Shown here: piece after piece, positions 24,250 through 25,283 of the stretch | Position numbering within the stretch: the stretch's first letter is position 1 | How the letters are laid out: the number at the start of each line of letters is the position of its first letter | Source of the DNA: Candidatus Nomurabacteria bacterium | Lineage (GTDB): Bacteria > Patescibacteriota > Minisyncoccia > Phycocordibacterales > UBA9973 | DNA length: 31,423 bases | Assembly: GCA_027327845.1 (NCBI GenBank) | Contig: DAHVYC010000001.1 | Coordinates: 1-31,423 of the forward strand | Reading direction: 5' to 3' | Program-made: the position numbers and the translations under genes | The notes under the pieces: model-generated | The model's database searches: none | What the model was told of the DNA's origin: nothing | Seen by the model: only the letters and a program-made list of their open reading frames with translations

Positions 24250-24322
24250 GCGCGGTTAGCTCAGTTGGTAGAGCATCCCGTTTACACCGGGAGGGTCAGG
24301 AGTTCGAGTCTCTTACCGCGCA
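24250..24322 (+). tRNA. tRNA-Val(TAC)
   Basis: Acceptor GCGCGGT/ACCGCGC, anticodon arm TCCCG-TTTACAC-CGGGA. Confidence 0.96.
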
Positions 24323-24335
24323 CATAGTACCTTTC

Positions 24336-24407
24336 GCCCCTGTAGTTAAATGGATATAACTGCGGACTTCTAAGCCGCTATTCGAGGTTCGATTCCTCGC
24401 GGGGGCA
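24336..24407 (+). tRNA. tRNA-Arg(TCT)
   Basis: Acceptor GCCCCTG/CGGGGGC, anticodon loop CTTCTAA with an A31-G39 mismatch, T-arm CGAGG-TTCGATT-CCTCG. Confidence 0.92.
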
Positions 24408-24473
24408 CAAAACTGAAAGTTTTGTGAGTCCATAATGCTACGGCGAGTCGAGAGCTGTGACCAAACTTATTTT

Positions 24474-25283
24474 ATGAAACTAAAAATTCTCTACGAAGAC
24501 AAGGACATTCTAGCTATTGATAAACCATCAGGAGTGATGGTACATGAAGATGGGAGAAGCAAGGAAGAAACAATAACAGATTGGGTAATTAAAAAATATC
24601 CGAAGTTAAAAGGAATAGGCGAGCCGGTGACTTTCAGCGGAGAAGAAATAGATCGCCCCGGCATAGTGCATAGGTTGGATAAAGAAACGTCCGGGGTTCT
24701 TCTGATTATGAAAACCAAAGAGGCCTTCGCTTATTTCAAAAAGCAATTTATGGATAGGAAGATAGAGAAGACTTACTACGCTATCGTCTCCGGTTTTGTA
24801 AAAAAAGATCATGAGATAATAAACAAACCCATAGGCAGGAGCCCGAAGGATTTTCGTCGTAGGCTCGCCGGGCGCGGAGCAAGGGGAGAGATGCGTGAAG
24901 CAATAACTAAATACAAAGTATTGAAAAGATTCGAGGCAAAGTGCATTCATTTTTCGGGTCGCTGTCTCCGCGTGCTCGCGGAGCGCTCACTCTCGGCCCG
25001 TCGGCCTGTGAGAGACCCGAAAAATGAATGCACTTTGCCTCTCTCTTATTTAGAGATCCATCCTAAAACAGGACGGACGCATCAAATCCGAGTGCATATG
25101 AAGTACATCAACCATCCGGTAGTCTGCGATTCTTTATATGACCCTAAGGGTGTTTGCCCCAAAGGACTCGACAGGCTTGCCCTACATGCTAAAAGCATTG
25201 AATTTAAAGGGTTAAATGGTAAAAAAATAAAAATTGAATCACTAATACCTAAAGAATTTGCTAAAATAGTAAAAGGGCAATAG
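24474..25283 (+). CDS. RluA/RluD-family pseudouridine synthase carrying an in-frame ~36-aa insertion
   Basis: IDKPSG, catalytic HRLDKETSG, GRTHQIRVH, LALHAKSI; start placed at MKLKILYED. Confidence 0.93.
   Translation: MKLKILYEDKDILAIDKPSGVMVHEDGRSKEETITDWVIKKYPKLKGIGEPVTFSGEEIDRPGIVHRLDKETSGVLLIMKTKEAFAYFKKQFMDRKIEKTYYAIVSGFVKKDHEIINKPIGRSPKDFRRRLAGRGARGEMREAITKYKVLKRFEAKCIHFSGRCLRVLAERSLSARRPVRDPKNECTLPLSYLEIHPKTGRTHQIRVHMKYINHPVVCDSLYDPKGVCPKGLDRLALHAKSIEFKGLNGKKIKIESLIPKEFAKIVKGQ
24933..25041. mobile_element. MITE/REP-like palindromic element inserted in frame in the RluA gene
   Basis: Perfect 28-bp terminal IR (24933-24960/25014-25041) enclosing a GC-rich core with a CTCCGCG-TGCT-CGCGGAG hairpin. 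Mobility is inferred. Confidence 0.75.

Follow-up and report, generated by a model that had tools for sequence, protein, structure and literature searches.

How does a gene for an essential type of enzyme stay open through a long and perfect palindrome, and what is the palindrome doing there? The question is raised by a stretch of 31,423 nucleotides (nt) from Candidatus Nomurabacteria bacterium (assembly GCA_027327845.1, contig DAHVYC010000001.1, positions 1 to 31,423; hereafter the window), in which a 109-bp element at 24933–25041 lies inside the gene of an RluA-family pseudouridine synthase (24435..25283, + strand). We conclude, with a probability of roughly three in four, that this element belongs, as a resident copy, to a selfish, non-autonomous palindrome family of the Candidate Phyla Radiation (CPR)/Patescibacteria, which combines a variable stem with a conserved core, is translated, and flips in place.

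The element, its family and its site

The host gene encodes 282 amino acids (aa), or 269 aa from the second ATG, and its product matches PF00849 in a profile search (E = 4e-28); orthologues that are 57–74% identical were identified in 36 of 40 genomes of the genus. Judged by the source names attached to orthologous proteins, the host belongs to Patescibacteria/Candidatus Paceibacterota. Positions 24933..24960 and 25014..25041 form a perfect 28-bp inverted repeat (97% over 31 nt when extended), and no comparable pair was obtained in 100 shuffles of the window (0/100). An earlier note, made without database searches, had described such a repeat around a GC-rich two-hairpin core, a description that our analysis confirms. 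The left arm, which forms the outer part of stem P1, encodes EAKCIHFSG, and the right arm encodes DPKNECTLP. Between them lies an invertible segment of 53 nt (24961..25013), and the long stem closes two GC-rich hairpins, hairpin 1 (24961..24986, + strand) and hairpin 2 (24990..25012, + strand). Folded as RNA, the 109-bp element reaches -76.6 kcal/mol (z = -11), and its hairpin tops the stability ranking across the 561-kb, 39% GC genome.

The protein of the window reads KRF-EAKCIHFSGRCLRVLAERSLSARRPVRDPKNECTLPL-SYLE at this position. Alignment with orthologues revealed the empty site, KRF-EDKKGNK-FTYLE, a 7-aa turn encoded by a loop of 15–21 nt, in agreement with the short turn that the earlier note had given for RluA enzymes. 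The open reading frame (ORF) continues through the element as had been stated, and the net gain over empty orthologues is about 30–32 aa instead of the 36 aa first estimated. In an AlphaFold2 model (mean pLDDT, the predicted local distance difference test score, 85.6), strands 144–161 and 179–197 flank residues 163–176; the arm-encoded residues are predicted to lengthen the native RluA beta-hairpin, and the core-encoded residues 163–176 have pLDDT values below 50, suggesting a floppy, disordered loop tip.

The signature of the family is a conserved 61-nt module, the type-1 core (24957..25017, + strand; GGTCGCTGTCT...GAGAGACC). Four copies of it are present in the same genome, all in frame, in RluA, UvrB, RecG and Tgt, and the core of the UvrB copy is near-identical to that of the RluA copy over 32 nt. 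A covariance model of the family (R1) matched 130 of 151 genomes of the genus, with 1–26 copies each and about 600 matches (genus tallies with this model include the unpublished genomes G075 and G138). In the order, matches are patchy (23 of 151 genomes), and elsewhere in the class only weak matches were found. In a genome from another family of the order (G210, L097), 12 type-1 copies score highly; one of them is intergenic, upstream of pcrA/uvrD, and another occupies the usual UvrD site. That a different family has cores so nearly identical suggests horizontal spread. The earlier proposal of a non-autonomous, dispersed palindromic element tolerated in frame, much like the palindromic elements of Rickettsia, is thus borne out.

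A gap-free alignment of 26 copies from 16 genomes contains 33 invariant columns, and the flanking stem sequence differs at each locus while the core stays fixed. At orthologous sites the core is 88–100% identical, compared with 65–76% for the adjacent conserved coding sequence and 58–83% for the arms, and arms from different sites are unrelated. The consensus fold of the family is a three-way junction composed of P1 (the arms), hairpin 1 and hairpin 2. Hairpin 1 combines a conserved base with a variable 5-bp distal stem and a TGCT loop; hairpin 2 is mostly invariant, and its apical pair alternates between C-G and U-A.

Among 50 unique copies, 47 (94%) are intragenic, within ORFs that span 600 nt or more, in genes that include UvrD/PcrA (two sites), Tgt (two sites), TsaD, RecG, UvrB, LeuRS, KsgA, Fmt-like and RluA. 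The three intergenic copies represent a share that roughly equals the non-coding fraction of the genome. Copies may land anywhere and, within genes, probably survive only in frame and in turns at the protein surface. Read from its letters, a typical core is free of stops in all six frames. Frame GSLSP..CETP (GSLSPRARGALPLGPSACETP) is used by 24 of the unique copies and the opposite-strand frame GVSQADGPRGSAP..DSDP (GVSQADGPRGSAPRARGDSDP) by 22, and the peptides of these two favoured frames are benign and rich in Gly, Ser, Pro and Asp. A third frame, GRCL.. (GRCLRVLAERSLSARRPVRDP), is used by the window copy alone among the 50, and an RluA protein that is 66% identical (P0015) is also in this frame. 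That the frame is kept, and that two of six stop-free frames are used, implies selection on the translated peptide and makes removal from the RNA, which the earlier note had offered as an option, unlikely.

The perfect repeat had been taken as a sign of either recent arrival or selection on the structure. A recent insertion into an empty RluA loop, similar to that of a MITE (miniature inverted-repeat transposable element), would explain the perfect repeat (28/28) by its youth, and it would fit the rarity of the type-1 core at this site (4 of the 121 closest orthologues) and the near-identity of the core to the UvrB copy. However, the RluA site is an old, occupied one. Of 40 genus genomes, at least 12 have a palindrome of 90–108 nt at exactly this loop. 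The loop is occupied in 72 of the 121 closest orthologues, mostly with other cores (a type-2 core, ..SCALPRVRGGTLGD.., in 19 and other inserts in 44), and empty in 49 (~40%); hairpins with homologous arms are common here among relatives. Apart from a possible TC dinucleotide on each side, no flanking direct repeat that could represent a target-site duplication was detected, and the arms vary from copy to copy, unlike the conserved terminal repeats expected of a MITE. Furthermore, in a sister strain (see below) the right arm carries one mismatch (27/28) and the element lies in the opposite orientation, which indicates that the perfect repeat post-dates the presence of the element. A recent insertion is therefore quite improbable. 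Maintenance of the structure, the other option, is supported by two-sided covariation, and an in-place inversion in the very recent past, or homogenisation of the arms, accounts better for the perfect repeat.

The outer arm sequences AGGCAAAGTG and CACTTTGCCT (peptides AKC.. and ..TLP) are common to the window and the type-2-core relatives L046 and L048; in L046, the outer 10 nt of the left arm, AGGCAAAGTG, recur at the same site around a different core. The most economical interpretation, which we hold with moderate confidence, is that the RluA copy is an old hairpin in which the type-1 core took the place of an earlier centre in the lineage of the window, and not a fresh insertion. Because empty alleles have only 15–21 nt at this site, both arms are insert-borne, and an origin of the arms as a back-to-front copy of host DNA was ruled out on the same grounds. 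At least four palindrome centres occur at the RluA loop across species, namely type 2 (SCALPRVRGGTLGD), SSSRLGIQDRSHA, LCVGKRPDLKNSKRSGLEE and SPSKGEGE-type hairpins (seen in L038-L049, L057 and L064; proteins P0002-P0067). At the level of the peptide, some of the other inserts (..ARGSQPVLGEGRSA..) resemble the type-2 core as read from its reverse strand in another frame.

Other palindromes are present in the same genome. A second palindromic repeat family (G000:C57:2205-2430 and G000:C106:6031-6139) encodes the peptide KKFLSL.AYRQAGALG.IRTGDPRL, and one of its copies lies just ahead of a DnaJ-like N-terminus within an open frame of 1236 nt. A 103-nt hairpin with another core type (G000:C88:482-584, -54.5 kcal/mol) is located in frame in an MnmA-like ORF after GADFVATGHYA.

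In-place inversion between two strains

Two strains that are about 99% identical differ by an in-place inversion of the RluA element. The second member of the 90%-identity cluster of the window RluA (P0121) departs from the window protein at only two places, a single K>E change and the core, where its peptide is GLSQADGPRVSAPRARGDSDP. The inverted form was found in four independent contigs, one from an NCBI metagenome-assembled genome (MAG) and three from ENA k141 assemblies, which outside the element carry 6 single-nucleotide polymorphisms (SNPs) in 849 nt relative to the window; the element itself differs from that of the window at 40 nt and from its reverse complement at only 2 nt. Logan contigs from four public runs cover this region, and those of three runs (two studies) carry opposite-strand joints between 24932 and 25041 and between 24933 and 25042. 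The inverted repeat formed by the arms lets the intervening segment flip in place while length and frame stay the same. When the flip was simulated in the window, the ORF stayed open and yielded exactly the core peptide observed in P0121, so that inversion recodes 19 of 20 core-encoded residues (GRCLRVLAERSLSARRPVRDP in the window versus GLSQADGPRVSAPRARGDSDP, the usual peptide of the family).

An assembly artefact, in which the palindrome is mis-oriented or chimeric, had been named in the earlier note as a threat to its account. Palindromes shorter than the k-mer of an assembler can indeed be mis-oriented, and a single contig holds the window orientation in the protein collection. However, orientation-specific junction 31-mers of the window form are present in the Logan unitigs of the zero-SNP run, the probable source run, and the same element in inverted form was recovered independently, from k141 contigs longer than the element and from the NCBI MAG, with private SNPs. 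Such an artefact is hardly credible as an explanation of either orientation.

The orientation in the window is probably the derived state, because the sister strain has the usual frame of the family, the consensus base in the core (GCGAGAG versus GTGAGAG in the window) and arms that match at 27 of 28 positions, compared with perfect arms in the window. Both orientations also occur at orthologous sites of different species, in UvrD (10/6), TsaD (3/4) and Tgt (1/6), and in one UvrD pair the arm asymmetries travel with the core, suggesting that the whole element was inverted. When in-place inversion was simulated for 48 copies, the outcome varied with the position of the cut in the imperfect arms and many stops arose inside the arms; the two common frames are connected by an asymmetry of one base in the arms, and GVSQ and GRCL by symmetric arms.

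Upkeep and spread of the palindrome

The fold is conserved across the family. Paired positions are complementary in 94% of cells, compared with 78% in shuffles and 37–49% when partners are slid, and two-sided changes number 146 against 46 expected; none of 500 shuffles reached the observed value in either case. In hairpin 1, each of the five distal pairs shows 2–11 two-sided changes and 99.6% of cells are paired; in hairpin 2, pair 59:64 shows 10 two-sided changes. Pairs are 95% strict Watson–Crick, and the rare G·U wobbles are split almost evenly between the mRNA sense strand (23) and the antisense strand (24).

The very stable fold, the strong covariation and a core more conserved than the neighbouring coding sequence could indicate a structured RNA, with the three-way junction read as RNA either for a host function or for intron-like removal from the mRNA. 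However, copies are equally frequent in both orientations relative to the gene and equally conserved in both, which, together with the lack of a sense-strand preference among the wobbles, argues against a structure that is read in mRNA. The keeping of frame, the avoidance of stops and the use of only two frames argue for translation instead, and a scan of Rfam 15 at E values up to 10 returned two tRNAs and noise, with no family matching the element. An RNA role is thus very unlikely. Among ribozymes, the hammerhead was rejected because the junction, judged by eye, misfits its consensus, and twister, pistol and hatchet were rejected solely for lack of any Rfam match.

These patterns suggest that the palindrome is maintained as DNA. 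Possible routes of the flip are RecA-type recombination involving the two arms and a template switch at the replication fork, either of which would invert the centre and homogenise the arms, and recurrent flipping or conversion between the arms would keep them complementary. Flipping or conversion of this kind would explain the perfect repeat and the apparently compensatory changes without an RNA function. RecA is present in 29 of 30 genomes of the genus; it was not found in the genome of the window, which is 79% complete. In a relative, RecA (G012:C4:47518-49401) is a 739-aa open frame whose Pfam match is split by about 1.1 kb, probably by an intein or another large in-frame insertion.

Several observations weigh against this interpretation. 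The cores do not group by genome or by site (mean differences 6.4, 6.8 and 7.1), and vertical descent, conversion and re-insertion are all candidate histories of the cores. The arm homology with the type-2-core relatives is short (10 nt). That the insert is translated and not spliced out is inferred from the frame statistics. The two orientations were found in different strains, 6 SNPs apart, and not in one clone, and the UvrB and Tgt copies are unflipped between the same two strains, which suggests that flipping is not frequent at every copy. Finally, passive palindrome dynamics do not explain the near-invariant unpaired bases of the core across more than 150 species. These bases imply a sequence-specific partner, presumably the machinery of spread, for which the core may serve as the recognition module.

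The same invariant unpaired positions are what would be expected of a protein recognition site, and they raise the possibility of a programmed intragenic inverton (an invertible DNA segment), in which a dedicated recombinase reads the core and RluA, and by extension UvrD, TsaD and Tgt, undergo adaptive phase variation between isoforms. Recoding intragenic invertons are already known (PMC10028968). Both orientations are natural, in frame and free of stops, they recur at three other orthologous sites, and the genome encodes two tyrosine recombinases, a resolvase fragment and a Y1 protein similar to REP-associated tyrosine transposases (RAYT; REP, repetitive extragenic palindromic sequence). The unitigs of run X1, probably the source run, break exactly at the ends of the arms, an ambiguous pattern that is compatible with a mixed population. 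However, the arms are the necessary place of crossover for the observed product and yet differ at each locus, unlike invertase sites. The distribution of orientations between strains and the unflipped copies also speak against a programmed switch, and the recoded part is predicted to be a disordered loop tip far from the conserved motifs, which makes a functional difference doubtful. We regard a programmed inverton as improbable.

The presence of the Y1 protein does not track the element. The gene in the window's genome (G000:C46:584-1219, L109) encodes 211 aa with motifs YHVYNRG and NPNHFHFL, and the Y1_Tnp family is represented by 1–14 copies in each of 109 genomes (of 151 in the genus), an unusual situation at genome sizes of 0.5–0.9 Mb. 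It was rejected as the mobiliser of the element, being missing from the element-rich genomes G012, G013, G048 and G062 and present in at least 11 of 21 element-free genomes, and no core was found within about 1.5 kb of the 13 Y1 genes examined. The earlier note had looked to a genome search for further copies and a mobilising TnpA or RAYT; the copies were found, in UvrB, RecG and Tgt, and no evidence tied the recombinase, resolvase or transposase genes of this genome to the element.

A broader possibility, which we consider unlikely but worth stating, is that the type-1 and other-core families together form genome-wide, self-maintaining invertible cassettes in CPR, with a factor that reads the invariant three-way-junction core. 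That factor, perhaps one of the multi-copy RAYT-like Y1 proteins or a tyrosine recombinase, would then drive spread, the exchange of cores between hairpins and reversible flipping, and each of dozens of essential enzymes would come in at least two loop isoforms per population.

Around the RluA gene, two tRNA genes (68 and 60 bits) are located directly upstream, at 24250-24322 and 24336-24407, and the RluA ORF starts only 27 nt past the second of them (24435). The same genome holds a fragment of a second RluA-family paralogue (G000:C113:655-1155), which is 55% identical over residues 1-154. Downstream of RluA, the 5' patch of a Cys-rich gene (27114-27212) matches a paralogue (L122:2410-2508) at 91% over 99 nt.

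Known systems and biological meaning

The closest functional parallel is provided by the Rickettsia palindromic elements (RPEs), in-frame palindromic repeats in protein genes (Ogata et al. 2000, as summarised in PMC10969869). According to this summary, RPEs are palindromic repeats of about 100–150 bp that are dispersed through a reduced genome, lie in frame in many unrelated housekeeping genes and add translated peptides to the protein surface, share their sites between related species and lack a known transposase. The family of the RluA element, being dispersed, multi-copy, palindromic and in frame in unrelated genes, belongs to this functional class. The hosts differ (CPR here, Alphaproteobacteria for RPEs), and the likeness is functional, with no kinship of sequence expected or claimed. 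In contrast to RPEs, a short core is conserved here and a long stem is variable yet paired, one site can hold alternative cores, copies keep to just two reading frames, and in-place inversion is documented.

On descriptive grounds, the flipped RluA pair also qualifies as a recoding intragenic inverton (Chanin et al., "Intragenic DNA inversions expand bacterial coding capacity", PMC10028968), in that a segment flanked by inverted repeats lies wholly in one coding sequence and both orientations are natural and recode without a stop. Those invertons are presumed to be driven by invertases and are mixed within clonal cultures (PMC10028968), whereas the orientations found here are fixed in different strains, the repeats form the stem, different at each locus, of a mobile palindrome, and nothing points to an invertase. 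In plastid genomes, small inversions bounded by hairpins arise by recombination without a dedicated enzyme (Kim and Lee 2005, as cited in PMC12928735); as described there, segments of 5–50 bp flip between stem-loop inverted repeats of 11–24 bp and recur across lineages. The inversions covered in that account lie in non-coding spacers of organelles, whereas the RluA element sits within the coding sequence of a bacterial gene and is a member of a dispersed repeat family.

Membership among MITEs was rejected, given that the core and not the termini is conserved and that no target-site duplication is evident. REP sequences are extragenic and flank their RAYT gene. The present family resembles REPs and the related REPINs in its short, GC-rich hairpin repeats, its many copies and the multi-copy RAYT-like Y1_Tnp genes of the genus. 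Its copies are mostly intragenic (94%), however, none adjoins a Y1 gene and there is no tight co-occurrence, so that membership in a REP/REPIN–RAYT system was rejected with Y1_Tnp unlinked.

Our literature searches found no description of such in-frame palindromic elements in CPR. What is new is the modular build, with a free stem, a fixed core and exchangeable centres, together with a documented in-place flip inside an essential gene. As selfish DNA within protein-coding genes, it represents a second case after Rickettsia, independent of the first and much larger. Although the tiny genomes of CPR/Patescibacteria leave little room for selfish DNA, they carry hundreds of palindromes in their most conserved enzymes. 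Such elements make proteins longer and more variable in length, can lead orthology assignment and annotation astray, and break short-read assemblies. Flipping or conversion at the DNA level can yield covariation that is mistakable for proof of a functional RNA, and such signals call for caution. The in-place flip links RPE-like elements with recoding intragenic inversions, with recoding that takes place without a dedicated switch, and provides a simple route to alternative loop sequences in essential proteins.
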